Below, in pieces: positions 11,108-41,633 of a stretch of 64,000 nt of DNA. The DNA is from Candidatus Limnocylindrales bacterium (GTDB lineage: Bacteria > Chloroflexota > Limnocylindria > Limnocylindrales > CSP1-4). The DNA is taken from the NCBI GenBank assembly GCA_036558545.1, contig DATBFJ010000027.1, forward strand, positions 946 to 64,945, written 5' to 3'. The position numbers and the translations under genes are program-made. The notes under the pieces are model-generated. The model had not been told where the DNA came from. It searched no databases and saw only the letters and a program-made list of their open reading frames with translations. Every line of letters begins with the position of its first letter. Position 1 is the stretch's first letter.

Positions 11108-12457
11108 ATGATCCGCCCAATGGAGGAACGACAGCGGCCGCTCGACCTGGCAATCCTCGGGGCGGGATACGTGGGCCTCGTCACGGCCGCCTGCCTTGCG
11201 AAGCTTGGTTTCAACGTCCGCTGCATCGACCGAGACACGAAGCGCATCGAAGGACTGCAAAGGGGCGTGATGCCGTTCTTCGAGCCCGGCCTCGAGGATG
11301 CCGTCCACGACGGGGCGTCGAGCGGGCGCCTGCGCTTCTCCAGCGAAGCCTCATTCAGCCATTGGGCGGACGCAGTCTTCCTGTGCATTGGCACGCTCGA
11401 CGAGCGGGGCAACTGGAGTGCTCAGGACGTTGAGCGCGCACTGGCCGGCGTTGTCGCCGACAGCGAGGCACCCAGGACGATCATCGTGCGCAGCACGTTG
11501 ATGCCGACCGAAACGGCGCGGATGGCGCGTATCGCGGCAGAGGTCGATGCATCCGTCGAGATCGCGATCAATCCGGAGTTCACCCGCCAGGGAAATGCTG
11601 TTGGCGACTTCCTGCGACCCGACCGGGTTGTTGTCGGGCTGACGAAGCCAGAATCCGAGTCGAGAGCACTGCCTCTGTTGCAGCGCGTCTACATGAACGT
11701 GCGCGCACCCATCCTCGTAACCGACGCGGCTTCGGCGGAGCTGATCAAGACCGGCTCGAACGTATTCCTGGGCCTGAAGGCTGGCTTCGCCAATGAGCTC
11801 GCCCGCCTCGCCGCCGCCACCGGTGCAGACGTCGCCACGGTCGTGGACGGAATTGGCCTGGACACTCGCATCGGACGTACCTATCTGACACCGGGCCCTG
11901 GCTTCGGCGGCTCGTGTCTGCCGTCCCAGACGCGGTCTCTGCCGGATGTTTCGGCCGCCCAGGGCGTCGACACGCCGATCATCGACTCAGTCGCGAGGTC
12001 CAATGCCCAGCAGGCGCAATGGATAGCGGCCCAGGTCGAGCGGGAGGTTGGAACTCTGCGGGGAAAGCAGATCGCCGTTTTCGGACTCGCGTTCAAGGCG
12101 GGCACGGATGACGTCCGTGAGTCTCCCGCGCTCTCCCTCGCGAGGGCGCTGGCAGCGAAGGGCGCCCAGCTGGCCGGTCACGATCCGCTGGCTGAAGCGG
12201 CCGCGCAAGCGGTGCTCGCGCGCGAAGGCGTGGCGATCCGGCTCGGCGAAAAGGACATTGACGCTGCGGCGGGAGCCGACGCGATCGTCATAGCAACCGA
12301 ATGGCCCGAGTACGCGAATCTCGATTGGACTTCGCTTGCCGCGGCAATGCCGGGCCGCGCTGTTGTCGACGCCCGGCGTGTGGTCGATCAGGAGGCTGCG
12401 GCGGACGCCGGCTTCAAGGTGGTCGTCCTCGGTCGCGTCATCGCACAGCCTGACTGA
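11108..12457 (+). CDS. ugd: UDP-glucose 6-dehydrogenase
   Basis: Rossmann motif LAILGAGYVGLVTAACLA, catalytic-Cys block GFGGSCLPSQ, C-terminal UDP-binding domain (FGLAFKAGTDDVRESPA). The start is moved to ATG 11108; the ORF-track N-terminus is an Arg-rich extension overlapping polX. Confidence 0.9.
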   Translation: MIRPMEERQRPLDLAILGAGYVGLVTAACLAKLGFNVRCIDRDTKRIEGLQRGVMPFFEPGLEDAVHDGASSGRLRFSSEASFSHWADAVFLCIGTLDERGNWSAQDVERALAGVVADSEAPRTIIVRSTLMPTETARMARIAAEVDASVEIAINPEFTRQGNAVGDFLRPDRVVVGLTKPESESRALPLLQRVYMNVRAPILVTDAASAELIKTGSNVFLGLKAGFANELARLAAATGADVATVVDGIGLDTRIGRTYLTPGPGFGGSCLPSQTRSLPDVSAAQGVDTPIIDSVARSNAQQAQWIAAQVEREVGTLRGKQIAVFGLAFKAGTDDVRESPALSLARALAAKGAQLAGHDPLAEAAAQAVLAREGVAIRLGEKDIDAAAGADAIVIATEWPEYANLDWTSLAAAMPGRAVVDARRVVDQEAAADAGFKVVVLGRVIAQPD

Positions 12458-12467
12458 CCCTCGAGTC

Positions 12468-13691
12468 ATGTCCTCGCCGGCGCCTGTCCGCGTCCTCATC
12501 GTGCACCCGCGCGATCCGGCCGCGCCGACTCTTGGTGGCATCCAGACCTTCCTGCGCGACTTCATCAAGTACGCACCGGCGGACTTCGACATCAGCTTCG
12601 TGGGCACCACGCGCGACGAACGGGCTCGCCCCGTTGGCAGCTGGATGACACTCGATGTCTACGGTCGGCGGATCAAGTTCCTTGCCGTTGGAACGAACGC
12701 CGGCGTGCCGCGCTCGCCAGCGGCCATCGCACGGTCGATCAAGGGGCTCGCGCGACTGTGGCGGGCGCTCGCCGTGCATGGGCGGATCCTGCAGGTCCAT
12801 CGCCCGTACCGCAGCTTCGTGCTCAATCACCACCCGGGGCCCATTGTCCAGTTCATTCATCTCGACCTGCGCGATTGGCCGGGGCCGCAGGGCTGGCCAA
12901 AGCTCAAGGGGCTCTATCGCGAGTTCTCGGACGAAGAGTTGGAGCGCATGGACCGCGTCTACATAGTCAACGAGACCGGTGCCCTGATGCTGCGCGAGGC
13001 GCACCCGACGATGGCCGACCGGGTCGAGTTCCTGCCCGTGTGGTTCGATGCGACCATCTTCCACCGGACAGATACCGACGAGCGAGCACGATTGCGCGCA
13101 GCACTCGCAGACCGGCTCGGGCTGATGGCAGCGGACGTCAAGAAGGCCCGTTACGTCCTCTCGGCGGGGCGGCTCACGGAGATCAAGAAGCCATTGCTCG
13201 CGGTCGAGACACTGGCCGCCTTGAACGACGCGGACGTTCACCTTGTGGTGGCCGGAGCTGGTGAGCTGGGCGAGGAGCTCGCCGCGCGGGCCGGGGAGCT
13301 CGACGTTGCCGATCGCGTCCACCTCCTTGGTGACCGGCCGCGGGACGAGATCGCGCAGCTGATGCAGGCGAGTGATGCGCTTCTGCTTACCGCTCGCTCT
13401 GAGGGCGGCGGTCCGAGGGTCGTTCTCGAGGCGCTGGCGTGCGGCCTGCCGGTCGTGTCCACGAGTGTTGTCGAGGTTCGCCGGACCGTGGCCAGCGGCA
13501 TCAACGGCTGGCTAGTCGACGATGCCGCGCCGCAGGCACTGGCGCGCGGGCTGCACTGGGTGCTCAGCCAGCCACACGAGGAGCTGGCCCGTGCCGCGGC
13601 GGCCGCCGTCGAGTCATTCACGGCGGAGCAGATGCTCGACGGGTTGTACGCCGCATATCGCGCCCTCAGCTCGTCATCCGAGAGCAAGTGA
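12468..13691 (+). CDS. Glycosyltransferase, GT4 (GT-B) family
   Basis: N-terminus VRVLIVHPRDPAAPTLGGIQTF and C-terminal E-x7-E region (SEGGGPRVVLEALACGLPVVST) are typical of GT4. The start is moved to ATG 12468. Confidence 0.8.
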   Translation: MSSPAPVRVLIVHPRDPAAPTLGGIQTFLRDFIKYAPADFDISFVGTTRDERARPVGSWMTLDVYGRRIKFLAVGTNAGVPRSPAAIARSIKGLARLWRALAVHGRILQVHRPYRSFVLNHHPGPIVQFIHLDLRDWPGPQGWPKLKGLYREFSDEELERMDRVYIVNETGALMLREAHPTMADRVEFLPVWFDATIFHRTDTDERARLRAALADRLGLMAADVKKARYVLSAGRLTEIKKPLLAVETLAALNDADVHLVVAGAGELGEELAARAGELDVADRVHLLGDRPRDEIAQLMQASDALLLTARSEGGGPRVVLEALACGLPVVSTSVVEVRRTVASGINGWLVDDAAPQALARGLHWVLSQPHEELARAAAAAVESFTAEQMLDGLYAAYRALSSSSESK

Positions 13692-14626
13692 CGCGCAAAC
13701 CCGACCTGTTCATCATCGGCGCACCCAAGTCCGGTACGACGTCGCTGTACGACTACCTCGGCGGGCACCCCGAGATCTACATGTCGCCGATGAAGGAGCC
13801 ACTCTATTTCTGTCCCGACGTGCGCAGCGGCCGCAGCCGGAAGCGCCTCGAGTTCCCGCGCGACGAGGCCAGGTACCTGGCGCTGTTCTCGGACGCCAAG
13901 GATGAGAAGCGACTTGGCGAAGCGACCACGCGCTATCTCGTCTCGCACGACGCGCCCCGGCTGGTGGCCGATTTCCAGCCCAACGCGTATGCGATTGCCA
14001 TGCTGCGCAACCCTGTGGACCTTGTCTACTCGCTGCACAACGAGCGGGTGTCACAGGGCCACGAGCGGATCACGGACTTCGCCGAGGCAATCGCAGCGGA
14101 CGCCAATCGCCAGCGTGGTGTGGACCTGCCCAGGGGCACGAACGTGCTCGGCGGTGTCTACCGCGAGTCGGCGCTGTTCAGCGAGCCGCTGCAGCGCTGG
14201 TTCGAGGCGCTGGGTCGCGAGCGCGTTCACGTCGTCGTGTTCGACGACTTCGCGAGCGACCCAGATGCGGCGCTGCGACGCGTGCTGGCCTTCCTGGACG
14301 TGGGTACCGACTATCAGCCTGAATCCTTCAAGAACCGGAACGCCAGCCACCGCCAGCGCAGATGGGTCCGGCGCATAGTCGACAGCCGGGCCGGCAACTG
14401 GGTGACTCACGACGCCATCTCGGCTGTCGTGGGACCGAACAGGCGTGCACGCTTGGCATTGCGCTTCCGCCATAGCCGCATCAACCGCCGGACCGTTCCT
14501 CGCCAACGGCTCGATCCTGGTCTTCGCAAGCGCCTGGCGGACGAGTTCCGTCCAGACGTGGCCCGTCTCAGCGAGATGCTCGACCGTGACCTGGTCTCTC
14601 TCTGGTTGCCCGATGTGCCGCGCTAG
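13688..14626 (+). CDS. PAPS-dependent sulfotransferase (paralog group A)
   Basis: 5'-phosphosulfate loop IIGAPKSGTTSL and 3'-phosphate motif LRNPVDLVYSLH. GTG 13688 overlaps the upstream stop (GTGA). Confidence 0.85.
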   Translation: MTRKPDLFIIGAPKSGTTSLYDYLGGHPEIYMSPMKEPLYFCPDVRSGRSRKRLEFPRDEARYLALFSDAKDEKRLGEATTRYLVSHDAPRLVADFQPNAYAIAMLRNPVDLVYSLHNERVSQGHERITDFAEAIAADANRQRGVDLPRGTNVLGGVYRESALFSEPLQRWFEALGRERVHVVVFDDFASDPDAALRRVLAFLDVGTDYQPESFKNRNASHRQRRWVRRIVDSRAGNWVTHDAISAVVGPNRRARLALRFRHSRINRRTVPRQRLDPGLRKRLADEFRPDVARLSEMLDRDLVSLWLPDVPR

Positions 14627-15516
14627 AAGCGACTCCTGATCAGGGCATCCAGCGCGGCCGCCTGAACCTGCCAGGCGTAAAGCTGGTGCCTCTCCGCGAG
14701 GGCCCACGGTCGACTCGGCGTGCGGTTGGCGTCGACGACATGGATGCAGCCGTCCTCGCGATCGCGCAGGACGTCGAGCTCGCCGTAGTCCATCTCGATC
14801 GCCCGGGCGAATCGAATGAGCTCGTCCTGCTCGTCGACTGAGTACAGCTCGTCGGCCGTGCGCGGCAACGACAGCGTCGTGCCGAAGAATCTGTTGCTCG
14901 CGGGTCGCCACTTCTCGTACGCCAGCACGATCTGCCCATCGATGATCACGGGCCGCGTCTGGGTCACGTACTCGCCCACCGTCGTGTCGATCAGACGCTC
15001 GTAGGTCTTGCCGCGGCGCGTGTGCTCCAGCGGTCCGCGCACCACCTGGCCACCGTGTCGACCGTTCTCCTCCGGCTTGACGACGATATTGCCGCGGAAC
15101 GTTCGCGGATCGACCACCAGGCTGCGACCCGCGACTTCGTGCCAGATCCGCTGAACGCGGCTCTTCGAGATGTCCAGGCATCGACCGTTGATCGCGTTCG
15201 ACGGTAGCCGCCGGGCCGCACGAGGCGAGAACCACGTGTCGCCGTCCCAGGCGATCGTCGCTTCGTCGGCACGCGGCGAGAAGCCGACGCGCAAGCCCAG
15301 GATGCGGACCATCTCCATGATCGGCGCCCGTGGCTGCGGACGCATCGGGAAGAAGTTGAGCACCGGCGCCGTGGCCGGCAGTGTCGCGTTGTACGCGGTG
15401 ATCGCCCGAGAGGCATGACGCCATCGGCGGAAACGACGGCCGGTCAGCCGTGCGCGCCAGGGCTCCGGGATGCGCGAGAGCACACTGGCGTGCTCAAGCT
15501 GATCCGGCTGCGGCAT
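14623..15516 (-). CDS. ATP-grasp-like amidoligase candidate (paralog 1)
   Basis: Paralog of 16726-17634. Shared blocks are F.PMR.P, DISK..V, VDP.TFRG..VVKP.EN, YERL.D, VAY..WRP and GE.DVLRD..G....VDANRTP.RP, the last resembling the ATP-grasp C-terminal Mg/ATP site. The start is taken at ATG 15516 to match the paralog length and avoid overlap with 15549-16733. Confidence 0.55.
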   Translation of the reverse strand: MPQPDQLEHASVLSRIPEPWRARLTGRRFRRWRHASRAITAYNATLPATAPVLNFFPMRPQPRAPIMEMVRILGLRVGFSPRADEATIAWDGDTWFSPRAARRLPSNAINGRCLDISKSRVQRIWHEVAGRSLVVDPRTFRGNIVVKPEENGRHGGQVVRGPLEHTRRGKTYERLIDTTVGEYVTQTRPVIIDGQIVLAYEKWRPASNRFFGTTLSLPRTADELYSVDEQDELIRFARAIEMDYGELDVLRDREDGCIHVVDANRTPSRPWALAERHQLYAWQVQAAALDALIRSRF

Positions 15517-15548
15517 GCCGAGCTCGGCCGGCAGGTTTTCGCGCGTTG

Positions 15549-16733
15549 TCACCGAATGGACCGCTTTGACGAACCGTCCGGGAAGGCGCGCGGTTCCACG
15601 CCTATGTCGCCGATCAGGCCGCTCCCAATCATCGCGTCGACGGCGGGGTGAGCCGAGCGAACCGCGCGCCGCACGGCCGCCGCCACTACGGGCGAATATG
15701 CGCGCTCGTCGATCTCGATGACTACCTCCAACCCGTCGCGCCTGACGGCCCACGCAACTCCGGGACAGACGGCACCGATCTGCTGCGTGATCACGGAAAG
15801 GCTCAGTGCCTCGCCGTGCTTGATCATCGTCCCTTCTCGTCCCAGATGTGAATCAAAGGCCCAGCGCCTGACCCCGGATACTTCGACCGGACGCAAGTTG
15901 CTGACCAGGTCGCCGGCGGCGTAGCGCACGGCTGGGAAGCCGTCGCGTTCGGTGGACGTCACGACCAGGAGCTCGCCGTCGTCCTCGCGGCGGACCGGCG
16001 GCGCCATCGCTTCGGGCACGATGTGCTCGTGAAACAGGTATCGCCCGTGGTCGTCGTCCGAATAGGCGATCGCGCCGACCTCGATCGACCCGAACACGTC
16101 GACGATGCGGCCCTCCTGCATGCCTAGTCGTCGCTCCATGGCGCGCCGCCACGGCCGTGGCGCAAGATCGCCCAGGACGATGATCCATTTGGGCGTGTAG
16201 CCGGGCCCGCCGGCGCCCACGATGCGCTCGAGGATGACCGGCATCGTGTACAGCAGGTCAGCTCTCAATTCGCGCAACCTCGCCACGTGCCTATCGAGCG
16301 GATCGCGAATGTCGATCTCGTGGCCTTCCAGGCCAATGACTCGAAAAATCTCGATTGCCGACGCCTGCGCGTGTCCGGTGCCAAGATCGGCACACGCACT
16401 TGCGCATGTATCGCCGATGAGCGCTCGAAACAGCCGGGCACGCTGAGCGACATAACGCACATCATCGGCACGCGGCCAGCTGACGGTTCGGCGAGTGTCC
16501 CTGGTCGTGCCGGAGGTCGAGAAAAGGCTCCCCGGCTCAAGGTCGGCGCCCTCAGCTTCGTCCCCGGCATAGTAACCGCGGTCGAGATCCGCCTCCCTTA
16601 TCAAGGGCAGCCGTTCGAACGTCGGCGCGCCCGCAAAACCGGACTGGTTGAGCCGCGACGCGTACCACGGCGAATGGCTCGCAGCGCTCAAGGCAGCAGC
16701 CATGACACGCGACCGCTCCGCCTCGTCAAGCAT
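15549..16733 (-). CDS. Adenylate-forming enzyme, CapK / phenylacetate-CoA ligase (PaaK, F390 synthetase) family
   Basis: AMP-binding core FSTSGTTRDTRR, plus overall length and architecture typical of PaaK/CapK-like ligases found in capsule loci. Confidence 0.7.
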   Translation of the reverse strand: MLDEAERSRVMAAALSAASHSPWYASRLNQSGFAGAPTFERLPLIREADLDRGYYAGDEAEGADLEPGSLFSTSGTTRDTRRTVSWPRADDVRYVAQRARLFRALIGDTCASACADLGTGHAQASAIEIFRVIGLEGHEIDIRDPLDRHVARLRELRADLLYTMPVILERIVGAGGPGYTPKWIIVLGDLAPRPWRRAMERRLGMQEGRIVDVFGSIEVGAIAYSDDDHGRYLFHEHIVPEAMAPPVRREDDGELLVVTSTERDGFPAVRYAAGDLVSNLRPVEVSGVRRWAFDSHLGREGTMIKHGEALSLSVITQQIGAVCPGVAWAVRRDGLEVVIEIDERAYSPVVAAAVRRAVRSAHPAVDAMIGSGLIGDIGVEPRAFPDGSSKRSIR

Positions 16734-17634
16734 TGCGCAGAAGCTCCGCGAATGCCTCGCTCATCGGCCCAAAAACCGCGTCATCGTGCTCGCGGGCCAG
16801 GCTTCTGGGCCGCACCGGCGTGCGGTTTGCATCGACGGCGTAGACAAGACCGGAGACGTTGTCGCGCAGGACATCGATCTCTCCAAACTCGAGCCCGATC
16901 AGCGCGGCAAAACGGACCAGCGTCTCGCGTTCCTCGCTGGAATACAGCCGCTCTGGATCGCCAGGCAGTGTCTCCTCCGGGCCGCGAAACCAGTGCGGAT
17001 ACGGCCGCCACCGGTCGTAGGCAACGACGATCTTGCCGCGCGCCACCATCGCACGCGTCGAGTGGATCCGGTCGCCAATCCGGCTGTCCACGAGCCGCTC
17101 ATAAACCACGTTTGCGCGCGGGCTGCGGATGGGCCCGTCGACGATGCGACCCCCTCGCACCGCATTCTCGAGTGGCTTGACAACCATCGTGCCGCGAAAG
17201 GTCGTTGGGTCGACGCTGATCGAGTAGCCCGCAGCCGTGGCCCACGCCTCGTCGACCGTTCGCTTCGAGATGTCCGCGCACGCGCGGTTCAGCGCGTGAG
17301 CGGGCAACCGGTCCACGTCATCGCGGGAAATCCACGTGCCGGTGTGCCATGCGACAGTGAGGTCCGCTCTGCCCGGGAACGGCGCGATGCGAGCGCCGAC
17401 GCGAGGCAGGACATGGGCCAGGGCAGCGGTCGGCTCGAGGCGCATTGGGTAGAAGCTGACGCTCGGTGCGTCGAGCGGCAGTCGGGCGTTATGAGCACGC
17501 TGAAAGCGCACGGCGCGCAGCCAGCGCCGACCGCGCCGCACGCCAAGCCAGCCACGATATGGATCGGGAATTCGCTCAAACGCCGCTCGCGCCCGGCGCG
17601 CCACAGGACGCGCTTGTGAACCCTCCACCCACAT
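16726..17634 (-). CDS. ATP-grasp-like amidoligase candidate (paralog 2)
   Basis: See 14623-15516. About 40 percent identity by eye across ~250 aa. Overlaps the downstream gene by 8 nt. Confidence 0.55.
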   Translation of the reverse strand: MWVEGSQARPVARRARAAFERIPDPYRGWLGVRRGRRWLRAVRFQRAHNARLPLDAPSVSFYPMRLEPTAALAHVLPRVGARIAPFPGRADLTVAWHTGTWISRDDVDRLPAHALNRACADISKRTVDEAWATAAGYSISVDPTTFRGTMVVKPLENAVRGGRIVDGPIRSPRANVVYERLVDSRIGDRIHSTRAMVARGKIVVAYDRWRPYPHWFRGPEETLPGDPERLYSSEERETLVRFAALIGLEFGEIDVLRDNVSGLVYAVDANRTPVRPRSLAREHDDAVFGPMSEAFAELLRNA

Positions 17635-17647
17635 ATCATCGCTTGCG

Positions 17648-19153
17648 TTGTCTGCCTGGAAGATCGACTACTGCCCGAGCCCGGACCTTCCACCGCTGGC
17701 CTGGGTAGCTCGGGTACACGCGTCGAGGGTCGCCGTTGCGTGCGGCCTATCCATCCGCACACAGGACGACGCGTTCTTCGACGGCACTTGGGTCGGCGGT
17801 CAGGACCTTGCAAGCGTGCTCGATTCGACGACACCATTCGGCGCCGGAATGGTCGTCCGTGACGGGGAGCTGTTCATCGTGCCGGCCGGCCACACATGCG
17901 AGGGTGTCTACCTCTGCCGGCCCGATGGCGCCGACAACACGCTCTACGTGAGCAACTCGATTGCGGGCCTGCTCGAGGCGACGGGTTTGTCGCTGGTCAA
18001 AGGCGTCGACTATGTGAGCCGCATGATCAGGCTCGCAGAAGGGCTCGATTTCACCCCGATAGAGATCCCGACAAGCGGTGCGCCAATCGAGTTTCACTAT
18101 TTCGAGAACCTGCGGATCGACGAACGCGGCCGCGTGACGATCATTCCGAAACCGCGCGAGAAGCCGTTCGTGTCGTACGACGACTACCTCGCGCGCATGG
18201 AGGCAGCCGCCGCCTCGCTCTTTGCCAACGCATCCGGCTACGAGCCGGTCATTGCCCTTTCAAATGGCTACGACAGCACGGCCATGGCCGTCATCGCGCA
18301 GCATGCCGGACTGCGCCGCGCCGTGACGTTCGCCAATGCGCGGCCGGCACGCGAGAACGAGTCGGATACGGAGGACAGCGGAGCCGCAACCGCCGGGCGG
18401 CTGGGTATCGCGGCGCAGGTCATCGATCGTGTCTCGTACATGGAGCGCGACGATTTGCCGGAGGCCGAATTCCTCGCGACCGGCGGCCCCGGCGAGGACG
18501 TCGCGAACAGCGCGATGGAGCCTGAGCTGCACCGCCGCTTGCTGATCACTGGCGATGTCGGCGCGGCCCTGTACCGCTTCGGCCGGCCCAAGCGCTCGGA
18601 CCTGTGGCGACTCGACCTTTCCGGCTCGTCGATGACCGAGTACCGCCTGCGTGTCGACTTCATGTTCGTGCCACTGCCCGTGTTCGGGATGACGGAAATC
18701 CCGAGCCTGCAGGAGATCACGCTCTCAGAAGAGATGAAGCCGTGGTCGATCGGCAGCTACTACGACCGACCCATCGCACGGCGCATAGGCGAGGAGGCAG
18801 GCGGCCTGCCGCGCGGCTCGTTCGCCGCCGTCAAGCACGCCGCGACAGCACTTATTCACCAGGATCCGGAGCGATGCATGTCCGCCGCAAGCCTGCGTGC
18901 GCTGCGCGACTTTGCCGCTGCCGAGGGGACGAAGCTGACGTTGGTGGAGCGTAAGCCGTTGCGCAGGCGAGAGCGCTTCGTGATCAAGGCGTCACGTCGA
19001 TTTCACGTTGATCAAATCGGCCGCGAGCTGGCCGCGCGGCAATGGGCGATGATCCACCACGAGCCGCGCCAGGGCTCTGTGTTATTTCGCTGGGGCGTGT
19101 CCGTCATTCGGCCGCGCTACGCCGCCGTCAGCGAGCTCCTGCCCGAGCGTTAG
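17648..19153 (+). CDS. Asparagine-synthetase-like PP-loop ATP pyrophosphatase lacking the N-terminal Cys nucleophile
   Basis: VIALSNGYDSTAMAV matches the SGGxDS PP-loop of AsnB-type synthetase domains. The N-terminal ~180 aa have an Ntn-like fold flavour but no Cys2. TTG start as in the ORF track; the start is uncertain. Confidence 0.5.
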   Translation: MSAWKIDYCPSPDLPPLAWVARVHASRVAVACGLSIRTQDDAFFDGTWVGGQDLASVLDSTTPFGAGMVVRDGELFIVPAGHTCEGVYLCRPDGADNTLYVSNSIAGLLEATGLSLVKGVDYVSRMIRLAEGLDFTPIEIPTSGAPIEFHYFENLRIDERGRVTIIPKPREKPFVSYDDYLARMEAAAASLFANASGYEPVIALSNGYDSTAMAVIAQHAGLRRAVTFANARPARENESDTEDSGAATAGRLGIAAQVIDRVSYMERDDLPEAEFLATGGPGEDVANSAMEPELHRRLLITGDVGAALYRFGRPKRSDLWRLDLSGSSMTEYRLRVDFMFVPLPVFGMTEIPSLQEITLSEEMKPWSIGSYYDRPIARRIGEEAGGLPRGSFAAVKHAATALIHQDPERCMSAASLRALRDFAAAEGTKLTLVERKPLRRRERFVIKASRRFHVDQIGRELAARQWAMIHHEPRQGSVLFRWGVSVIRPRYAAVSELLPER

Positions 19154-22491: not shown

Positions 22492-22530
22492 AGGCCGATA
22501 AGCATGCGCGATCCTACGAGGGGCACGTAA

Positions 22531-23433: not shown

Positions 23434-23443
23434 GGGAGGTTCG

Positions 23444-24364: not shown

Positions 24365-24369
24365 CAGCC

Positions 24370-32687: not shown

Positions 32688-32749
32688 ACCCTCCGCGTTC
32701 CTAGACTAGGCGAAATGGCGGCTCCCCAGTCCTGACGAGCGGCCGCGAG

Positions 32750-34504: not shown

Positions 34505-35616
34505 AGGTCGCCTTCGACGCCACTCCGCTCGCGACACGCGGCGCGGGAGTCACGCACTTCACGCTCGAGCTGCTCCGCGCGCTGCGCGACAACGCGCCAA
34601 GCGTCCAGCTCGCGCTCATGCTCAATCGCCCGATCACAAATTCGGCGCTGGCGGCCGAGTTCAACTCGGTGCCCAGGGTACAAACGCCGACTCTTGTCAG
34701 CCGACAGGCGTGGCTGCAGACCGCGCTGCCGCTGGCCCTCGCGCGCCACAGGGTCGATGTGTGCCATTTCACGAACTTCGACGCGCCGCTGCTCGGCCGA
34801 ACTCCGACAGTGGTCGCGATCCACGACACCTCGCTGCTGACCACCCCTGAGCAACATCCGCGGCGGCGCGTCATCGTGCTCGGTCCGATCATGCGCCGCG
34901 CCGCGGGCGCGGCGCGCGCCGTCGTCTGCCCGACCGAGAGCGCTCGCCGCGACGCGATAGAGGCACTCGGCCTGAATCCGGAGAAGGTGCATGTCATTCC
35001 CGCCATTGCAGCGCCGCGCTTCCGACCGATCCACGACCCTTCGGCCGTACAGGCGGCATGTGCCAGATACGGGCTGCAGCCCGGGTTCATCCTCTTCCTG
35101 GGCACCATCGAGCCGCGCAAGAACCTCGTCCGCCTTGCGCGGGCATACGCCCAGCTGAGGCGCGAGGGCTTCGACAACAAGCTGGTGATGTGTGGCAGCT
35201 GGGGCTGGAAATCGGACGATCTTCGCCCGGAGATCGAGGCGCTTGGCATTGCCGAGGATGTCGTGTTCACCGGATATGTGCCAGACCAGCGCGTGGTTGA
35301 GCTGATCAACGGCGCGGGCGTCTTCGCGTATCCCTCGCTCTACGAGGGTTTCGGCCTGCCGATCGTCGAGGCGCTCGCCTGCGGCGTGCCTGTGGTCACC
35401 TCAGACCGTGGCGCCACGGCCGAGGTCGCGCGCAGTGCCGCCGTGCTGGTCGACCCGACGAGCGACGACGCGATCGCTGAGGGTCTGCGCCGCGCTCTGG
35501 ATCCAACGGGACATGACCATCTCCGGGCCGCTGGCCTGGAGCGCGCGGCCATGTTCAGTCGGCCCAATGCCGCGCTCCAGGCCGTCCGCGTCTACGAGGC
35601 CGCCATCGCGGGCTAG
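34501..35616 (+). CDS. Glycosyltransferase, GT4 family
   Basis: VKVAFDATPLATRGAGVTHF N-terminus and YEGFGLPIVEALACGVPVVTS (E-x7-E). GTG 34501 overlaps the upstream stop (GTGA). Confidence 0.8.
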   Translation: MKVAFDATPLATRGAGVTHFTLELLRALRDNAPSVQLALMLNRPITNSALAAEFNSVPRVQTPTLVSRQAWLQTALPLALARHRVDVCHFTNFDAPLLGRTPTVVAIHDTSLLTTPEQHPRRRVIVLGPIMRRAAGAARAVVCPTESARRDAIEALGLNPEKVHVIPAIAAPRFRPIHDPSAVQAACARYGLQPGFILFLGTIEPRKNLVRLARAYAQLRREGFDNKLVMCGSWGWKSDDLRPEIEALGIAEDVVFTGYVPDQRVVELINGAGVFAYPSLYEGFGLPIVEALACGVPVVTSDRGATAEVARSAAVLVDPTSDDAIAEGLRRALDPTGHDHLRAAGLERAAMFSRPNAALQAVRVYEAAIAG

Positions 35617-35640
35617 GCCGTGGCATCCCGCGCGGAAGGC

Positions 35641-36561
35641 TCAGCGGCTCCAGGCGGACAGGTCGCGGCCAATCAGTGCGCCCAGCTCCGCAACCTGTGG
35701 CGCGAATTCGGCCGTGAGCTGGGCGCGCAGCTCGGGATCCATCTTCGCTCGCTCGGTCGTGGTGCTGTTGACGCTGACGAGGGCGTCACGGACTCGGTGC
35801 ATGACGGGCACGCTGCGCAGCCGGCCGACCACCTTCTTCATCGGCCCACGCGGCGCGAAGATCATCTTCTGGACAGCGCCTGAGCGTGGCTTCTTGTTCG
35901 GGTTGTAGACGGATAGATCGACCTCGAAGGTCGGATCCGCACCGAGAAACTCCAGCGTAGACCGATACACGGCGCGGGGATCGGCAACCAGGTCGTCGAA
36001 GACAATGACATGAACCGACCTCCGACCCAGAACGTCGAAGTAACGCGCAACCTGATCCGGAAAGTTGACACTGTGGCGGTAGTACAGCGCCTCGGGTCGA
36101 ATCGCATCGGCGGGTAGTCGGTGGCCCGCCATCCGGTCGTCTTCGGCGGCGAGCGCTTGCGTGAAGTCGGTCAGATCCTCGCGCTGGTTGAACACCAGCT
36201 GGCTGTGCTGGCTGTACATCACGTCGACGGGGTTGCGCAGCATGACGATCGCCTTGGCGGCCGGGTCGAAGTCGCGGATCTCCTGTGCCGCCGTCTTCGA
36301 ATACAGGTACCAGGGCGAGGCCTCGCCCGCGTGCTGGTCGTCGCGAGCGTCATGGAACAGGGCAAGGTACTCATCAAGGGTCATCCGCCGGTAGCGCGGC
36401 GTCAGATCCTGGCCGAAGTACATCGGCTCCTTCGGGATACTCATGAAGATCTGGGGATGGGCGCGCAGGTATTCGTAGAGCGCGGTCGTGCCTGCCTTGA
36501 ACGCCCCGACGATGAAGAATTCCGGCCTCCTCATCGGCTTATTCGGTCGATTGGACGACAT
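35641..36561 (-). CDS. PAPS-dependent sulfotransferase (paralog group A)
   Basis: FFIVGAFKAGTTALYEYLRAHPQIFMS and LRNPVDVMYSQH. Tandem with its closest paralog at 36700-37662. Confidence 0.85.
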   Translation of the reverse strand: MSSNRPNKPMRRPEFFIVGAFKAGTTALYEYLRAHPQIFMSIPKEPMYFGQDLTPRYRRMTLDEYLALFHDARDDQHAGEASPWYLYSKTAAQEIRDFDPAAKAIVMLRNPVDVMYSQHSQLVFNQREDLTDFTQALAAEDDRMAGHRLPADAIRPEALYYRHSVNFPDQVARYFDVLGRRSVHVIVFDDLVADPRAVYRSTLEFLGADPTFEVDLSVYNPNKKPRSGAVQKMIFAPRGPMKKVVGRLRSVPVMHRVRDALVSVNSTTTERAKMDPELRAQLTAEFAPQVAELGALIGRDLSAWSR

Positions 36562-36699
36562 AGATCCGCGGTTTTCGCGAAGACGTCCTCTTGTGACTCG
36601 GTGGGACGAGATAGATCCACCCGGCAGAAGACACGGGCCTCTGACATGAACGGCGGACGCATCTCGTCTATTCCACGCAAAACAGGCGCGACACGCCCG

Positions 36700-37662
36700 T
36701 CATGCCGATGTCGGGGCCGTTTCTGTCGTGGGATCTGCCGGGCGTGCAGTCGCGGAGGCGGTCGCGGGGGGTAGTTCGGTCCACGACGAGAGGTCTCGAT
36801 CGATGAGCTTGCCCAGCCGCTCGATCTCCGGCGTGAACTCCTCGATCAGCTCGCGGCGTAGCGTCGGATCCATGGGCGGCCGCGGCTTCGCCTCGCTGTT
36901 CATCTCGAGCATCTTCGTGCGCATGGAACGGACGAGCGGAAATCGGCGCAGGAACGGCGCGAGCGGGAGCAGCAGCTTTGGCGCGAAGATCAGCCTCTGG
37001 ACGAGAGGCGAGCGGACGCGCCGGTTCTCGTTCGAATTCGGCGGCGCGGCCGCGAGGCTAGGGTCCACGCCCAAAAACTCGAGAGCGCCACGGACGACAC
37101 CGGCTCCATCGCGCTTCATGTCGTCGGTCAGCATCACGTGTACGCGATCGCGGCCAAAGACGTCGAAATAGCGCTCAAGCTGCTCGGCGAAGTGAACGCT
37201 GTGGCGGTAGAAGAGGTTCTCGACATTTATAGGCCCGGGCGGCAGGCGCTTACCGGCCCTGCGGTCGGGCTCTGCGTCGAGTGCCTGTTTGAAGTCGGGG
37301 ATGTCCTCGATGACGTTGAAGATGAGCTGGTTGTGCTGTGCGTACATGACGTCAACCGGGTTGCGCAGCACCACCATGATCTGGGCGTCCGGTGAGAACT
37401 CCTTGATCTCCTTTGCCGCGGACGTCGAGTAGAGATACCAGGTGCTCGCCTCGCCGACGCGCTGCCCGGGCTTGGCATCCTTGAACAGGCGCAGGTAGTC
37501 GTCAAGGCTCATTCGGCCGTAGCGCCGCGTCAGGTCATCGCCGAAATACAGCGGCTCCTTGTGGAACGGCATGAAAATCTGCGGATGACGGCGCAACTGG
37601 TCGTAGAGGGCGGTGCTGCCGCTCTTGAACGCGCCGACAACGAAAAAGTCCGGTCGGGGCAT
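36700..37662 (-). CDS. PAPS-dependent sulfotransferase (paralog group A)
   Basis: FFVVGAFKSGSTALYDQLRRHPQIFMP and LRNPVDVMYAQH. Colinear similarity to 35641-36561 along the whole length. Confidence 0.85.
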   Translation of the reverse strand: MPRPDFFVVGAFKSGSTALYDQLRRHPQIFMPFHKEPLYFGDDLTRRYGRMSLDDYLRLFKDAKPGQRVGEASTWYLYSTSAAKEIKEFSPDAQIMVVLRNPVDVMYAQHNQLIFNVIEDIPDFKQALDAEPDRRAGKRLPPGPINVENLFYRHSVHFAEQLERYFDVFGRDRVHVMLTDDMKRDGAGVVRGALEFLGVDPSLAAAPPNSNENRRVRSPLVQRLIFAPKLLLPLAPFLRRFPLVRSMRTKMLEMNSEAKPRPPMDPTLRRELIEEFTPEIERLGKLIDRDLSSWTELPPATASATARPADPTTETAPTSA

Positions 37663-37728
37663 GGTTCCGAAGCATAACGTGCCGAGCAGTAGCGTCTCAC
37701 AACGGGTAGCCTCGCGGCGAGTGTTGAA

Positions 37729-38691
37729 ATGCGTGTTCTGCTAACCGGAGCTGCCGGCTTCATCGGCAGCCACCTGAGCGACCGGCTCATCGCCGACGGC
37801 CATGCCGTCGTGGGCGTGGACAACCTGTCCAGTGGCCGGCTTACGAACCTTGCCCAGCTGAGGGCGGAACGGCGGTTCGAGTTCGTCGAGGCGGATGCAG
37901 CCGAGCCCCTATCCGTCAGCGGTCCTTTCGACTGGGTCATGCACTTGGCCAGCCCAGCCTCGCCGCCGCGCTATATGCGCGATCCGATCGCCACCCTCCG
38001 CGTGAACTCTGAGGGAACGCGTCACCTTCTTGAGCTGGCCCGCGCGAACGGAGCGTCCTTCTTCCTGGCCAGCACCAGCGAGGTATATGGCGATCCCCAG
38101 GAGCATCCGCAACCAGAGAGCTACTGGGGCAACGTCAATCCGATCGGACCACGCAGTGTCTACGACGAAGCCAAGCGCTATGGCGAGGCCGTGGCGATGG
38201 CATACCACGGCCAATATCGTGTTCCGTTGCGGATCAGCCGCATCTTCAACACCTACGGTCCGCGGATGCACCCCGAAGACGGCCGCGTAGTCTCGAACCT
38301 GATAGTTCAAGCCCTGCACGATCAGCCGCTGACCGTCTACGGCGACGGTCAGCAGACGCGCAGCTTCCAGTTTGTCGACGATCTTGTCGAGGGAATCATC
38401 CGGCTCATGGCAGTCGACTACGACCGCCCGGTCAACCTGGGCAACCCAGTCGAGTGGACCGTGCTCGAGCTCGGCCAGCTGATCAAGAGCATGACCGGCA
38501 CCGGCGCGAGCCTGGTCTTCGAGCCGCTGCCCGTCGACGATCCACGGCGCCGCAGGCCGGACATCGGCCTGGCCAGGGAATTGCTCGGCTGGGAGCCACA
38601 GGTGCCGCTCGAGCAGGGCCTCCGAAGGACGATCGAAGCGTTTCGCGCCGAGCTCGCGTCCTCTGCAAGGGTCGAGGCCGGCGCCTCGTGA
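37729..38691 (+). CDS. uxs: UDP-glucuronate decarboxylase (UDP-xylose synthase), SDR family
   Basis: [14 protein letters not shown] Rossmann motif. [40 protein letters not shown] is the highly conserved UXS block containing the YxxxK catalytic site. Confidence 0.9.
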
Positions 38692-39614
38692 CCAGGGCAC
38701 GGATCACGGGCGCGATCCTGACGCGCAACGAGGCAGCGAACGTCGAATTTGCGCTGCGCAGCCTGTACACGTGGTGCGACGAGGTGATCGTCGTCGACAT
38801 GCAGAGCTCGGATGCCACCCGCGACATTGCGCGGCGCTACACCAAACTCGTCCTCGATCACGAGCCGATCACGGACTTTGGCCTGGCACGCCAGATGGCC
38901 GTCGACAACGCCACGTCGGATTGGATCCTGTCGATCGATGCCGACGAGGTCGTCACGCCTGGCCTCGCCGCTTGGATCCGCGACTTCATCGATTCGGACC
39001 CGGCCTACGACGTCGCGTTGATCCCACGGGTGAATGTCTTCCTGGGCCGCTGGTTGCGATCGACGCCGTGGTGGCCGGGCAAGCCGCGCTTATTCCGCAA
39101 GGGAACGCTGACGGTCACGGCCGACCTGCACCACAGCCTGCTGCCCAACCCGGACGCACGCATCGCGAAGCTACCCAAGGACCCGCGCATCTCGCTGTGG
39201 CATTTCACGCGGCTCAGCCTCGAAGACATCGCGACCAAGACCAATCGCTACACCTCGATCGAGGCACACACGATGCTGCGTGAAGGTCGCGGCGATCCGT
39301 CCGCCACTGATCTGTTCTGGCGCTCGTTCCGCGAGATAGGCGTGTACTTCTTCAAGCGTGGCTATCGCGACGGATTGGGCGGTCTCGCCTACGCTCTCGA
39401 TCGGGCTTATTACCGGTTCCTGATGCATGCCAAGCGTTGGGACATGACTCGCGCACCGGCGCGTCAGGAGCGCTACGACCGCTGGCGCGACTCGATTTTG
39501 AGCGATTTTCCAGGCGAGGGCAGAGCGCCGCAGAGAGTCAAGGGCCGAGCCGCCAGGAAGTCTTCCTCGGTATCATCGACGCTCGCGGACCCGAGCAAGG
39601 TGGAGCCTGCCTAG
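38688..39614 (+). CDS. Glycosyltransferase, GT2 family (canonical DxD)
   Basis: [21 protein letters not shown]...[13 protein letters not shown] and ILSIDADE (DxD). GTG 38688 overlaps the uxs stop (GTGA). Confidence 0.8.
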
Positions 39615-40603
39615 TGACCCGAACCCCAGACCTGTTCATCGTCGGTGCGCCCAAGAGCGGTACAACGTCGCTGTACGAGTACCTCAAAGGCCATCCCGAG
39701 GTGTTCATGTCCGTGGTCAAGGAGCCCTGCTATTTTGCTCGCGACCTGGCCCTCGACGACTCCGGCAATTTCATGATCTATGGTCGCGACGCAGAGCATT
39801 ACGCGGAGCTGTTCGCTGACGCCGGCGATGCAAAGCGCGCGGGCGAGGGCTCGACGCGCTATCTGTACTCGCTCGACGCACCGACCTTGATCCGCGAGGC
39901 ACAACCGGACGCCTTCGTGATCGCGATGCTGCGCAATCCGGTGGACATGATCCAGTCACTGCACGCGCACAAGCTCGCCGCCGGAACCGAGGACGAGCCC
40001 GACTTCGAGAAGGCGCTCGCCCTGGAAGCCGAGCGACACGCCGGACGCCGGATCCCCAAGCATTCGAACCCAAAGCTGGCGACCTATCGCGACCGGGCGA
40101 TGTTCGCGGATCAACTCCAGCACTGGATCGATGCCTTCGGCCGCGAGCGCGTCCACGTCGGCATCCTCGAGGACATGATCCGCAACCCGGCGGCAGAATT
40201 CCGCAAGACGCTCGAGTTCCTGCAGGTTGATCCCGACTGGCAGCCCGAGTCGTTTTCTGCCTACAACACGGCCCACGGCGCGAGATCCGTGTTCGTGCGC
40301 CGCGTGCTCAACGGCAAGATTCCGCAATGGTTCGTATGGCGGGCCTTGCCGCGCCTGATCGGCGACACGCGAACCCGGGAGCTGGTTCGTGATTTCCGCC
40401 ACTCATGGTTCCATCGCAGGCCGATCAAGAAAGGCCCGATGCGGGCGGAGATGCGCCGCCAGCTCGAGGATGAGTTCATGCCCGACGTCACGCGCGTGTC
40501 GCAGATGCTCGGCCGCGATCTCGGCCAGCTGTGGTTCAAACGGCCGGCCCTGGGTACGCCCGCAACGCCACGGCCAAAGAAGGAGACGGTCACCGCCTCG
40601 TGA
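39614..40603 (+). CDS. PAPS-dependent sulfotransferase (paralog group A)
   Basis: [41 protein letters not shown] is nearly identical in pattern to the N-terminus of 13688-14626. LRNPVDMIQSLH is present. GTG 39614 abuts the upstream TAG. Confidence 0.85.
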   Translation: MTRTPDLFIVGAPKSGTTSLYEYLKGHPEVFMSVVKEPCYFARDLALDDSGNFMIYGRDAEHYAELFADAGDAKRAGEGSTRYLYSLDAPTLIREAQPDAFVIAMLRNPVDMIQSLHAHKLAAGTEDEPDFEKALALEAERHAGRRIPKHSNPKLATYRDRAMFADQLQHWIDAFGRERVHVGILEDMIRNPAAEFRKTLEFLQVDPDWQPESFSAYNTAHGARSVFVRRVLNGKIPQWFVWRALPRLIGDTRTRELVRDFRHSWFHRRPIKKGPMRAEMRRQLEDEFMPDVTRVSQMLGRDLGQLWFKRPALGTPATPRPKKETVTAS

Positions 40604-40613
40604 GGCTGGCTCG

Positions 40614-41168
40614 ATGACGCACCCCACGGGCCGCGGCGCGTGCCTGTGGTTCACCGGGCTGTCCGGCGCCGGCAAGACGACGACCGCAGATGCTCTCGTG
40701 CCGATGCTCGAGGCACGCGGCAGGACTGTGACGGTTCTGGACGGGGACATAGTCCGGACTCATCTGTCCAAGGGACTGGGGTTTTCAAAAGAGGACCGCG
40801 ACGAGAACGTCCGGCGCGTCGGCTTCGTGGCGGCGGAGATCGTGCGCCACGGGGGCATGGTCGTGTGTTCGCTCGTGTCGCCGTACCGAGCGACACGCGA
40901 CGAGGTCCGCGCGATGGTCGATGATGCGGGCGGACCCGGATCGTTCATCGAGATATTCGTGGACACGCCACTTGACGAGGTCGTGCGCCGCGACGTCAAG
41001 GGCTGGTATGCCGGCGCCGAACGCGGCGAGGTCAAGAACATGACCGGCGTGTCCGATCCCTACGAACCTCCCGAAGCCCCCGAGATGCGCCTGACCACTC
41101 TCAATCGCAGTGTCGACGAGAACGTTCACATCGTCGTCTCATTCCTCGAGGAACGCCGGCTGCTGTAG
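40614..41168 (+). CDS. cysC: Adenylylsulfate (APS) kinase
   Basis: P-loop WFTGLSGAGKTTTA, then LDGDIVRTHLSKGLGFSKEDRDENVRRVGFVA and SPYRATRD, the conserved APS kinase blocks. The start is moved to ATG 40614. Confidence 0.9.
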   Translation: MTHPTGRGACLWFTGLSGAGKTTTADALVPMLEARGRTVTVLDGDIVRTHLSKGLGFSKEDRDENVRRVGFVAAEIVRHGGMVVCSLVSPYRATRDEVRAMVDDAGGPGSFIEIFVDTPLDEVVRRDVKGWYAGAERGEVKNMTGVSDPYEPPEAPEMRLTTLNRSVDENVHIVVSFLEERRLL

Positions 41169-41252
41169 GTCAATTTGCGCCATTTGGCCCTTGTGGGGCA
41201 CAGGGTCGCCGCACGAGTGTGATTGCCACAGTTGGCTCTAGGAGGTGCGTTG

Positions 41253-41633
41253 ATGCACATCACCCAGTCCGGTTCAACGGATCTAATGCAGATCGTCCTC
41301 AACAACGACGACTTCCGGCGCGTCATCGAGACGGGCGAACACGAGCAGGTCGTCGCAATGACTCTCAAGGAAGGCGAGGACATCGGATCGGAGGTCCATC
41401 CGACCACTGATCAGGTGTTCATTTTCGTCGCCGGCGAGGGAGAGGCCGTCCTCGACGGTCGGTCGCAACGGTTTGACGACGGTGACCTCGTCTTTGTCCG
41501 TGCCGGCACAGAGCACAACATCGTCAACCGCGGCGGAGTTCCGCTGCGGCTGATAACGATCTATGCGCCGCCAGAGCATGCGCCAGGGACCGTGCACCGC
41601 ACCAAGGCGGAAGCGCAGGCCGAGGAGCACTGA
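41253..41633 (+). CDS. Cupin domain protein
   Basis: Cupin motifs GEDIGSEVHPTTDQVFIFVAGEG and GDLVFVRAGTEHNIVN. ATG 41253 is preceded by GGAGGT. The ORF-track start at 41223 is also possible. Confidence 0.7.
   Translation: MHITQSGSTDLMQIVLNNDDFRRVIETGEHEQVVAMTLKEGEDIGSEVHPTTDQVFIFVAGEGEAVLDGRSQRFDDGDLVFVRAGTEHNIVNRGGVPLRLITIYAPPEHAPGTVHRTKAEAQAEEH

Follow-up and report, generated by a model that had tools for sequence, protein, structure and literature searches.

Five sulfotransferases and an adenylyl-sulfate kinase in a conserved chromosomal island of Candidatus Limnocylindrales: a predicted Wzx/Wzy-type locus for a multiply sulfated surface glycan

What is known of the genetics of bacterial sulfated polysaccharides comes essentially from synechan only, and recent papers still call such polymers confined to cyanobacteria (PMC8205485, PMC13390465). 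The synechan cluster, xss (sll5042-5060), contains eight glycosyltransferase (GT) and two sulfotransferase (ST) genes, matching the eight sugars and two sulfates of the polymer, and xssA is required for its production (PMC8205485). The cluster has also been transferred to a heterologous chassis (PMC13125312). Further cases have been predicted in Actinoplanes (wps-1, two STs; PMC13390465) and Pontiella (one ST in the cluster; PMC7356697), and a Clr-activated cluster on pSymB of S. meliloti, with SMb21237, SMb21243, SMb21249, nodP2Q2, and 13 glycosyltransferases, has been proposed to make a sulfated polysaccharide (PMC5498481). Chemical surveys report "sulfated GAG-like" (glycosaminoglycan-like) material in sludges and anammox granules, with producers and enzymes unnamed (PMC10483923, PMC7356697). 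We analyzed a stretch of 64,000 nucleotides from a Candidatus Limnocylindrales bacterium of the Chloroflexota (assembly GCA_036558545.1, contig DATBFJ010000027.1, positions 946 to 64,945; hereafter the window), which contains an island of ~30 kb (11108-41633 of the window) with five ST genes (ST1 to ST5) and cysC, the gene for the adenylyl-sulfate (APS) kinase that makes 3′-phosphoadenosine 5′-phosphosulfate (PAPS). In the literature we found no paper linking Limnocylindria with sulfotransferases.

Genes were called by codon-position GC and assigned through Pfam, NCBIfam, and PDB sequence searches. In profile searches the island came out as one glycan-assembly unit, and the gene list of a first-pass annotation of this DNA was borne out at the coordinates it had given (Table 1). 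An acidic surface heteroglycan, O-sulfated at several positions, is in our view the likely product of the island; it would be built by a Wzx/Wzy-type pathway and attached to the wall by a LytR-CpsA-Psr (LCP) ligase. A multiply sulfated acidic heteropolysaccharide was also the product foreseen in the first-pass annotation, and as a predicted product it is supported by the sequence-level tests given below; a nonsulfated polymer is not known from any near-identical locus. That the locus is real and that its interpretation holds is well supported in silico. The further claim that every gene fits one pathway applies to most genes, but four genes at 14623-19153, which that annotation had overlooked as a cassette, appear to encode amide-forming ligases and not classical glycan enzymes.

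All five STs scored above the gathering score of Sulfotransfer_1, Sulfotransfer_3, or both, exactly where five PAPS-type STs had been annotated. They belong to two lineages: ST1, ST3, ST4, and ST5 are paralogs with 39-54% identity (hereafter family A), and ST2 is separate (22-24%). The 5′-phosphosulfate-binding (5′-PSB) loop is present in all five, with Lys in family A and Arg in ST2 (YPRSGN), and so is the Arg of the 3′-phosphate-binding (3′-PB) motif, which reads VRDPRDIVVS in ST2. The Glu of the family-A KEP motif aligns with the catalytic Glu ("AEPHFF") of 3-OST-3, and the His of KTHEP in ST2 with the catalytic His of StaL ("ATH") and SULT. These residues are conserved across family A (Lys: 150/156; Glu: 152/156; Arg: 156/157) in a set of 164 open reading frames (ORFs) from 80+ loci. 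A profile of the four paralogs matched the PDB entry 3RNL, a bacterial sulfotransferase (E = 6.5e-65), as well as heparan-sulfate 3-OST (6.5e-12) and NDST (5e-10), with 3-OST-3, 3-OST-1, 3-OST-5, and NDST together ranging from 6.5e-12 to 3e-6; ST2 matched StaL, Teg12/14, and cytosolic SULTs (SULT1A1) at E ~1e-15. By sequence alignment, then, the motifs of a PAPS pocket and a catalytic base are found in every one of the five, the closest structures being 3RNL and 3-OST/NDST for four of them and StaL/SULT for ST2. Family A shares the 5′-PSB and 3′-PB motifs and the Glu base with the heparan-sulfate enzymes, but identity to the animal proteins is low, with E from 1e-12 to 1e-7, and the His and Asp that accompany the Glu in 3-OST are not conserved. 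The animal 3-OST and NDST are Golgi lumenal, whereas family A is soluble, cytoplasmic, and presumed to act on lipid-linked units: none of the five STs has a transmembrane (TM) segment, so they should act in the cytoplasm, the site of PAPS.

The PAPS supply is encoded next to the last ST. The start codon of cysC lies 10 nt downstream of the ST5 stop codon, as first annotated, and its product scored above cutoff with both APS_kinase and TIGR00455. Linkage of cysC to family-A STs was found in 13 Limnocylindria-type loci and in four loci of other phyla.

We compared the window proteins with plasmid pSYSM (NC_005229) of Synechocystis sp. PCC 6803 by tblastn (E <= 1e-3), a comparison that had been proposed with the first annotation and that yielded homologs of XssA, XssP, and XssN. 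The family-A proteins ST1, ST3, ST4, and ST5 are 25-28% identical to XssA (E from 1e-16 to 1e-20), the priming phosphoglycosyltransferase (PGT) shares 47% identity with XssP in the catalytic domain, and the GT26 enzyme is 32% identical to XssN. No window protein matched the XssE-type ST, the XssK polysaccharide co-polymerase (PCP), or the XssQ/R/S regulators at this threshold. Judged by these sequences, the synechan xss cluster is the closest characterized system. Both are Wzx/Wzy-dependent heteroglycan clusters with STs embedded among GT4 and GT2 genes; however, xss has two STs and the island five, of which ST2 has no xss counterpart. The island adds cysC, LCP, Ugd/UXS, a GGDEF cyclase, and the amide-ligase cassette, but lacks the XssK PCP, an outer-membrane polysaccharide export (OPX) gene, and XssQRS, and it is a chromosomal locus of a monoderm chloroflexote whereas xss lies on a cyanobacterial megaplasmid.

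The pSymB cluster, like the island, is a large surface-polysaccharide cluster in which several STs, many GTs, and Wzx/Wzy/Wzz-type genes stand together with sulfate-activation genes of the cluster itself; one of its STs is a family-A homolog (~31% identity). It differs in its diderm proteobacterial host, its PCP/OPX genes, the lack of LCP, its cAMP/Clr control, and its three STs, and its product, too, is predicted from genes. In our survey this region (L088; pSymB CP140934.1, 898899-917693) has three annotated STs among Wzx/Wzy/Wzz/OPX genes. A plasmid of Sulfitobacter pontiacus (L089; NZ_CP081119.1) carries, between copies of IS3, a family-A ST together with GT genes and a bifunctional sat/cysC. 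Multiple STs and a locus-borne PAPS supply therefore have precedent in pSymB and Sulfitobacter. The first-pass statement that such loci are rare and that characterized ones hold one or two STs was overstated, given the three STs and nodP2Q2 of pSymB and the three to five family-A STs per locus that are usual in Limnocylindria. New here are the number of STs (five, of two lineages), the wall-polymer setting (LCP/TagA) in a monoderm, the host lineage, and the amide cassette.

The close relatives all come from metagenome-assembled genomes (MAGs) of Chloroflexota/Ca. Limnocylindria. On contig CAVQDZ010000001, from another species, two adjoining loci of the survey (L004 and L084) together form this island, again bounded by FabH/FabG and PolX and again with all five ST types and cysC; locus L082 is collinear with the window's left half, down to the MgtE-Nramp-PolX flank. 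The ST1 ortholog in L084 is 67% identical and the ST3 ortholog in L004 86%, the ST2 ortholog occupies the same position in L084, and exact copies of ST4 occur in three metagenomes; samples with exact matches are JGI 3300036826, SRR11614855, and SRR11613357. Among 32 Limnocylindria-type loci, surveyed over ~21 kb each, 21 had GT26, 13 had LCP, and 13 had cysC; the cysC-sulfotransferase-GT26-LCP core recurs across Limnocylindrales MAGs, and some relatives carry two LCP genes. A GT, PGT, or Wzx gene lies within 10 kb of a family-A ST in 31/32 Limnocylindria-type loci and in 33/46 loci of other phyla, family A being found at 41-48% identity in anammox bacteria, Nitrospirota, Verrucomicrobiota, Planctomycetota, Actinoplanes, and others. 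The island is thus a chromosomal site conserved among relatives, in which a core (cysC, STs, GT26, and LCP) stays constant and GT content varies, as is typical of surface-glycan loci, and because the same arrangement recurs in many related genomes, the clustering of these genes is not due to chance. In the complete Limnocylindria chromosome OY969885.1 (~606-706 kb; L028 and L085), the PolX-side and FabH-side parts of the island are ~95 kb apart, which could mean an island of three times the size or one split by other genes.

The island lies between PolX and FabH here as in relatives. Its left flank consists of the housekeeping genes for MgtE, Nramp, cation efflux, and PolX, and its right flank of those for a FabG-like short-chain dehydrogenase/reductase (SDR), FabH, FabZ, and acetyl-CoA carboxylase. 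GC content is flat at ~66% throughout the window, the 64 kb contain no transposase or integrase gene, and tRNA and Rfam scans of them were empty. The annotated absence of flanking mobile elements was confirmed, and an origin by mobile elements or horizontal transfer was rejected on the flat GC, the lack of transposase and integrase genes, and flanks that are the housekeeping genes of relatives. Junctions between ST and glycosyltransferase genes mostly overlap or nearly so. Start and stop codons overlap at GT4a/ST1 (GTGA), GT4b/ST2, and UXS/GT2d, and the gap between GT2d and ST5 is at most one base.

Table 1 Predicted genes of the island in window coordinates, with the matches on which each assignment is based (E values unless given in bits)
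Feature	Coordinates	Strand	Evidence
Ugd, UDP-glucose 6-dehydrogenase (UDP-GlcA supply)	11108..12457	+	three UDPG_MGDP_dh domains; TIGR03026 364 bits, above cutoff
GT4a	12468..13691	+	Glycos_transf_1 1.8e-30
ST1, family A	13688..14626	+	Sulfotransfer_3 1.4e-14, Sulfotransfer_1 3e-10; GAPKSGTT, KEP, LRNPVD..S
ATP-grasp-fold ligase, paralog A (no Pfam model)	14623..15516	-	41% identical to 16726-17634
DdaG-like adenylate-forming (ANL/PaaK-type) amide ligase	15549..16733	-	NF041596 DdaG 4e-63, 214 bits vs cutoff 700
ATP-grasp-fold ligase, paralog B	16726..17634	-	AF2 model pLDDT 92.8 and Foldseek
AsnB-fold, β-lactam-synthetase-like adenylating enzyme	17648..19153	+	AF2 pLDDT 94.5 and Foldseek
GAF-GGDEF diguanylate cyclase, start uncertain (20319 to ~20440)	19150..20319	-	GGDEF 1e-44, GAF 4.5e-10
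ST2, Sulfotransfer_1-type (StaL/SULT-like)	20516..21391	-	Sulfotransfer_1 5.5e-29; PRSGN, KTHEP, RDPRD..S
GT4b	21388..22545	-	Glycos_transf_1 1.3e-23, Glyco_transf_4 1.6e-11
GT2a	22531..23433	+	Glycos_transf_2 1.3e-7, above cutoff
GT2b	23444..24364	+	Glycos_transf_2 8.8e-11
GT2-like, weak call, start uncertain	24283..25272	+	Glycos_transf_2 3.5e-4, 21 bits, below Pfam cutoff 23.3
GT4c	25296..26399	+	Glycos_transf_1 2.7e-28, Glyco_transf_4 4e-14
PGT, priming polyprenyl-phosphate hexose-1-phosphate transferase	26487..27890	+	Bac_transf 2.9e-67, CoA_binding_3; TIGR03025 367 bits, above cutoff
Divergent Wzy/O-antigen-ligase-like membrane protein	27904..29442	+	9-10 TM; no own Pfam match
Wzx flippase (MOP superfamily)	29386..30693	-	Polysacc_synt 2e-19, Polysacc_synt_3, MatE; 11 TM
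LCP (LytR-CpsA-Psr) glycopolymer ligase	30715..31806	-	LytR_cpsA_psr 7.5e-22, above cutoff; one N-terminal TM
GT26 WecG/TagA/CpsF	31863..32687	-	Glyco_tran_WecG 6.7e-43; TIGR00696 above cutoff
Wzy_C-family membrane protein (polymerase or ligase)	32750..34504	+	Wzy_C 3e-15, above cutoff; at least 10 TM, large loop
GT4d, start uncertain	34618..35616	+	Glycos_transf_1 5.6e-35, Glyco_transf_4 4e-15
ST3, family A	35641..36561	-	Sulfotransfer_3 2e-15; GAFKAGTT, KEP, LRNPVD..S
ST4, family A	36700..37662	-	Sulfotransfer_3 1.8e-10, Sulfotransfer_1 6.7e-9; GAFKSGST, KEP, LRNPVD
UXS, UDP-glucuronate decarboxylase (UDP-xylose supply)	37729..38691	+	377 bits, E 7e-112 to human UXS1
GT2d	38688..39614	+	Glycos_transf_2 5.9e-14
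ST5, family A	39614..40603	+	Sulfotransfer_3 1.3e-11, Sulfotransfer_1 6e-11; GAPKSGTT, KEP, LRNPVD..S
CysC, adenylyl-sulfate (APS) kinase, makes PAPS	40614..41168	+	APS_kinase 8e-58, 195 bits; TIGR00455 197 bits vs cutoff 139
Small cupin (mannose-6-P-isomerase C-terminal-like), last island gene	41253..41633	+	Cupin_2 3e-15, MannoseP_isomer 2e-7

Other island genes are predicted to supply precursors for the glycan and to assemble and export it. Both sugar-nucleotide genes that had been annotated, ugd and the UDP-glucuronic acid (UDP-GlcA) decarboxylase gene, are genuine by their profile and sequence scores: the nearest NCBIfam equivalogs of Ugd are TuaD (297 bits) and AglM, and UXS is closest among extended SDRs to characterized UXS, the runner-up family scoring 176 bits against 377. 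The priming transferase, the Wzx flippase, and the LCP ligase likewise stood, the first by TIGR03025 and the others by Pfam matches and TM segments. Eight of the nine annotated GTs are clear (four GT4, three GT2, and one GT26), but the one at 24283-25272 is only weakly GT2-like, with an ortholog kept in loci L005 and L082; the GT26 enzyme scored below cutoff with the TarA and EpsA equivalogs. Two Wzy_C proteins had been proposed, of which the one at 32750-34504 matches that family; the protein at 27904-29442 is connected to it through orthologs, two of six reaching Wzy_C (up to 3e-6) and the one in L084 being a weak match. Even for the former, the polymerase role is presumed from homology, because the Wzy_C family also contains ligases and O-oligosaccharyltransferases. 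The terminal cupin gene adjoins cysC also in loci L004, L017, and L028.

Each step of the pathway that we propose is drawn from homology. Ugd would make UDP-GlcA, part of which UXS would turn into UDP-xylose. The Bac_transf PGT would prime polyprenyl phosphate with hexose-1-phosphate, and the TagA-like GT26 with up to eight GT4/GT2 enzymes would extend the lipid-linked unit at the cytoplasmic face. The five soluble, cytoplasmic, PAPS-dependent STs would sulfate distinct positions of this unit, with Glu as the catalytic base in the four heparan-sulfate-type/XssA-type paralogs and His in the StaL/SULT-type ST2, while the co-transcribed CysC would raise local PAPS from APS made elsewhere in the genome. 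Wzx would then flip the sulfated unit, a Wzy_C protein would polymerize it, and the membrane-anchored LCP enzyme would move the polymer to peptidoglycan, yielding a sulfated teichuronic-acid-like wall polymer of which some may be released. If the gene-count logic of synechan (eight GTs and two STs for eight sugars and two sulfates) is applied, about 10 transferases and five STs would correspond to ~0.5 sulfate per sugar, which is in the range of glycosaminoglycans.

Several points weigh against this interpretation. Five ST genes need not equal five sulfates per repeat, and the product is deduced from the genes of an uncultured MAG. Searches of the 64-kb window found neither ATP sulfurylase (sat/cysDN) nor PAP phosphatase (cysQ), which leaves the PAPS pathway with gaps on this stretch. 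The closest characterized relatives of ST2 sulfate small molecules, and in ST4 Ala replaces the 3′-PB Ser; the same replacement occurs in 61/98 Limnocylindria-type family-A ORFs vs. 7/59 from other phyla, and is a clade-specific change of the PAPS pocket. All five STs are under purifying selection, but the dN/dS values against the orthologous island of the other species (ST1: 0.28; ST2: 0.32; ST3: 0.10; ST4: 0.10; ST5: 0.125; cysC: 0.11) are rough, dS being near saturation. No TagO/WecA GlcNAc-1-P transferase (MraY/WecA family) was found in the window, its sole primer being a Bac_transf enzyme, so that there is no clear sign of a canonical linkage unit for a wall polymer; the second Wzy_C-like protein might act as a ligase or an O-oligosaccharyltransferase instead. 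Finally, the amide-ligase cassette is absent from the otherwise collinear L004 and L084, and a distant homolog (39% identity) of its AsnB-fold enzyme lies in a nonglycan neighborhood, so the link between cassette and glycan rests on neighborhood.

The features of ST2 and ST4 would fit STs of which some or all act on lipids, peptides, or small metabolites in place of the glycan, or are inactive, so that the polymer would be nonsulfated or singly sulfated. It would also agree with this that no NCBIfam model was reached by any of the five STs, leaving them without a specific function from that source, and that the entry name of 3RNL states no substrate. We regard this reading as highly improbable, however. 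In all five, dN/dS is low and the catalytic residues (Lys, Glu or His, and Arg) are retained; the ST genes show translational coupling to glycosyltransferase genes and share an operon with a dedicated cysC; and family A occurs in glycan neighborhoods across phyla and has a homolog in XssA, an enzyme required for a sulfated exopolysaccharide (EPS).

The fate of the polymer is a separate question from its sulfation. The EPS made by the homologous xss system is released (PMC8205485), and the island product might similarly be released, or be transferred by a Wzy_C-type O-oligosaccharyltransferase to an S-layer or other surface protein, with the pathway and the sulfation as proposed above but no attachment to peptidoglycan. 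This would accord with the presence of two Wzy_C-type proteins, one of which (32750-34504) weakly matches an O-glycosylation ligase (1.3e-8) and the TfpM O-oligosaccharyltransferase (0.005) in NCBIfam, and with a Bac_transf primer of the kind used in S-layer glycosylation and EPS systems rather than TagO/WecA. Yet the LCP and TagA-like GT26 genes are, apart from the sulfation genes, the most conserved island genes across species, a core that points to a wall-attached polymer, and no candidate glycoprotein or PCP/OPX export gene lies in the island. We therefore hold a product not bound to peptidoglycan to be possible, though on the doubtful side, and prefer attachment by LCP. The first-pass annotation had called the product an exopolysaccharide that was possibly wall-anchored through LCP; the LCP ligase is genuine and accompanied by GT26 in the core, but "exopolysaccharide" may be the wrong word. 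No PCP (Wzz or tyrosine kinase) or OPX was found among the scanned window proteins. Chloroflexota are generally viewed as monoderm, which fits this absence, as PCP and OPX are expected to be dispensable in a monoderm.

A wall polymer of comparable make-up is known from Bacillus subtilis. The tua genes encode Ugd, a Bac_transf primer, a Wzx-like flippase, and GT4/GT2 enzymes, and LCP proteins (TagTUV) attach the product, an anionic, phosphate-free uronic-acid polymer, to peptidoglycan. The island shares these families, and TuaD is the nearest NCBIfam model of its Ugd, but the likeness is at family level, with all equivalog scores below cutoff; moreover, teichuronic acid is unsulfated, and the island adds UXS, five STs, and cysC.

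Variation among relatives bears on whether one pathway or several are encoded. The island might combine two or more adjoining glycan pathways, a conserved right core (cysC, ST3 to ST5, GT26, LCP, Wzx, and Wzy) and a variable left set (PGT, GT4/GT2, ST1, ST2, and the second Wzy-like gene), with the STs split among lightly sulfated products. Two Wzy_C-like proteins and 10 transferases exceed the need of a typical repeat unit; the halves vary independently, L082 keeping the left half without ugd and ST2 and many MAGs retaining only the right-hand core within 20 kb; and the flanks are far apart in OY969885, as given above. Nevertheless, the island has a single priming PGT and a single Wzx, and the full two-half arrangement with five ST types recurs between PolX and FabH in another species, so that we judge a composite of this kind unlikely and retain a single pathway.

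The four genes at 14623-19153 appear, from sequence and structure models, to form a cassette of amide-bond-forming enzymes comprising two ATP-grasp ligases, a DdaG-like ligase, and an AsnB-fold enzyme. The DdaG-like protein has weak PaaK matches in PDB, and its ortholog in L082 carries PF27279 (DdaG_C). The ATP-grasp protein at 16726-17634 had no match in Pfam, NCBIfam, or PDB sequence searches; the best Foldseek matches of its model were PPIP5K/Vip1/Asp1 inositol-pyrophosphate kinases, together with RimK, PsnB, LysX/ArgX, and Ddl (E ~1e-8, TM ~0.5, probability 1.0), and its conserved residues are K153, E252, D254, D268, and N270. An exhaustive profile search placed 1503 clusters at 50% identity in this family, and the idea of a tiny lineage-restricted family, based on 85 proteins from a word-indexed search, was rejected. 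The protein at 17648-19153, without a match in Pfam or PDB sequence searches, had been a candidate membrane protein, which its lack of TM segments and its AsnB fold rule against; its model is closest to β-lactam synthetase (2.5e-11), carbapenam synthetase (CarA; 3.5e-10), and asparagine synthetase. The PP-loop, S205-x-G207-x-D209, is invariant and no Cys is conserved near the N-terminus (LSAWKIDY...) across 39 members, so the protein is predicted to be an adenylating amide-forming enzyme resembling β-lactam synthetase and CarA, and not a glutamine amidotransferase like AsnB proper. In the Pfam library used, no model covers either the AsnB-fold or the ATP-grasp family. The ATG of the ATP-grasp gene (17634, minus strand) and the TTG of the AsnB-fold gene (17648, plus strand) are divergent with 13 bp between the start codons, which would place each promoter within the coding region of the other gene, unless the starts have been called wrongly.

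Four carboxylate-activating enzymes adjoining a locus that supplies GlcA suggest uronic-acid amidation, and the cassette probably converts carboxylates, most plausibly those of GlcA, to amides with amino acids or amines. An ATP-grasp amidoligase has been reported in a capsule (CPS) locus of Vibrio (PMC11382117). The cassette is present in L082 and adjoins LCP in L010-L012; given its absence from the collinear island of the other species it is an accessory, strain-variable module, and the nonglycan setting of the distant homolog indicates that the AsnB-fold family is not exclusively glycan-linked. An alternative is that the cassette modifies peptidoglycan, as Asl-type or LtsA-type enzymes do. 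The dapdiamide set of Pantoea (DdaG, DdaH, and DdaF) consists of an AMP-forming ligase, an AsnB-fold enzyme, and an ATP-grasp enzyme, and the cassette combines the same three classes. However, its DdaG score is far below the cutoff (Table 1) and its AsnB-fold protein lacks the glutaminase Cys; Dap-synthesis, epoxidase, and exporter genes were not found in the island, and a dapdiamide-like small-molecule pathway was judged unlikely on the lack of Dap-synthesis and export genes.

The GAF-GGDEF protein has an intact GGEEF motif and RxxD I-site (RAED), and its gene is kept at the same place in L082, L084, and L085 (82% identity, dN/dS 0.14). It would give the pathway a c-di-GMP input. The cyclase of the first-pass annotation is thus confirmed, but the control by c-di-GMP that was read from it is a suggestion drawn from a conserved neighboring gene: no c-di-GMP receptor was found for the island, and an Rfam scan of the window returned no riboswitch, the c-di-GMP type included.

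Sulfated polysaccharides of animals and algae serve in hydration, metal binding, and adhesion and show bioactivity. The island offers a gene set for a predicted heavy sulfation, conserved and under selective constraint, from a soil and freshwater lineage that is abundant and uncultured; it also suggests a way for a monoderm to make its wall anionic without using phosphate. Its family-A STs offer a usable marker across phyla, the five STs are possible parts for engineering sulfated glycans, and the cassette holds two enzyme families without a Pfam model. We put forward, tentatively and as a proposal that we would sooner doubt than believe, that Limnocylindria make a phosphate-free, sulfate-based, LCP-attached "sulfated teichuronic acid" with up to five sulfation positions, amide-decorated in some strains and serving as a teichoic-acid equivalent, and that the same ST family in anammox bacteria, Nitrospirota, and Verrucomicrobiota marks the producers of the "sulfated GAG-like" polymers of granular sludges and sediments.

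In anammox bacteria, family-A STs lie beside Wzx and GT4 genes in Ca. Brocadia pituitae (L059; AP021856, 3822382-3842185), which has two, in L057, and in L061 (Ca. Kuenenia). These STs are candidate enzymes for the sulfated GAG-like polymers of anammox granules.

Elsewhere in the window, two ORFs of 896 and 595 aa (1284-3974 and 62166-63953, both on the minus strand) have a strong coding signature and no Pfam match at E <= 0.01. Two separate biotin-carboxyl-carrier-like (Biotin_lipoyl) ORFs (44292-44771 and 48731-49228, both minus) lie in the fatty-acid/acetyl-CoA carboxylase neighborhood right of the island. A large signaling protein of 1174 aa is encoded outside the island at 55286-58810 (plus), combining a zinc ribbon, an adenylate/guanylate cyclase domain, and an AAA_16 (STAND-like) ATPase.

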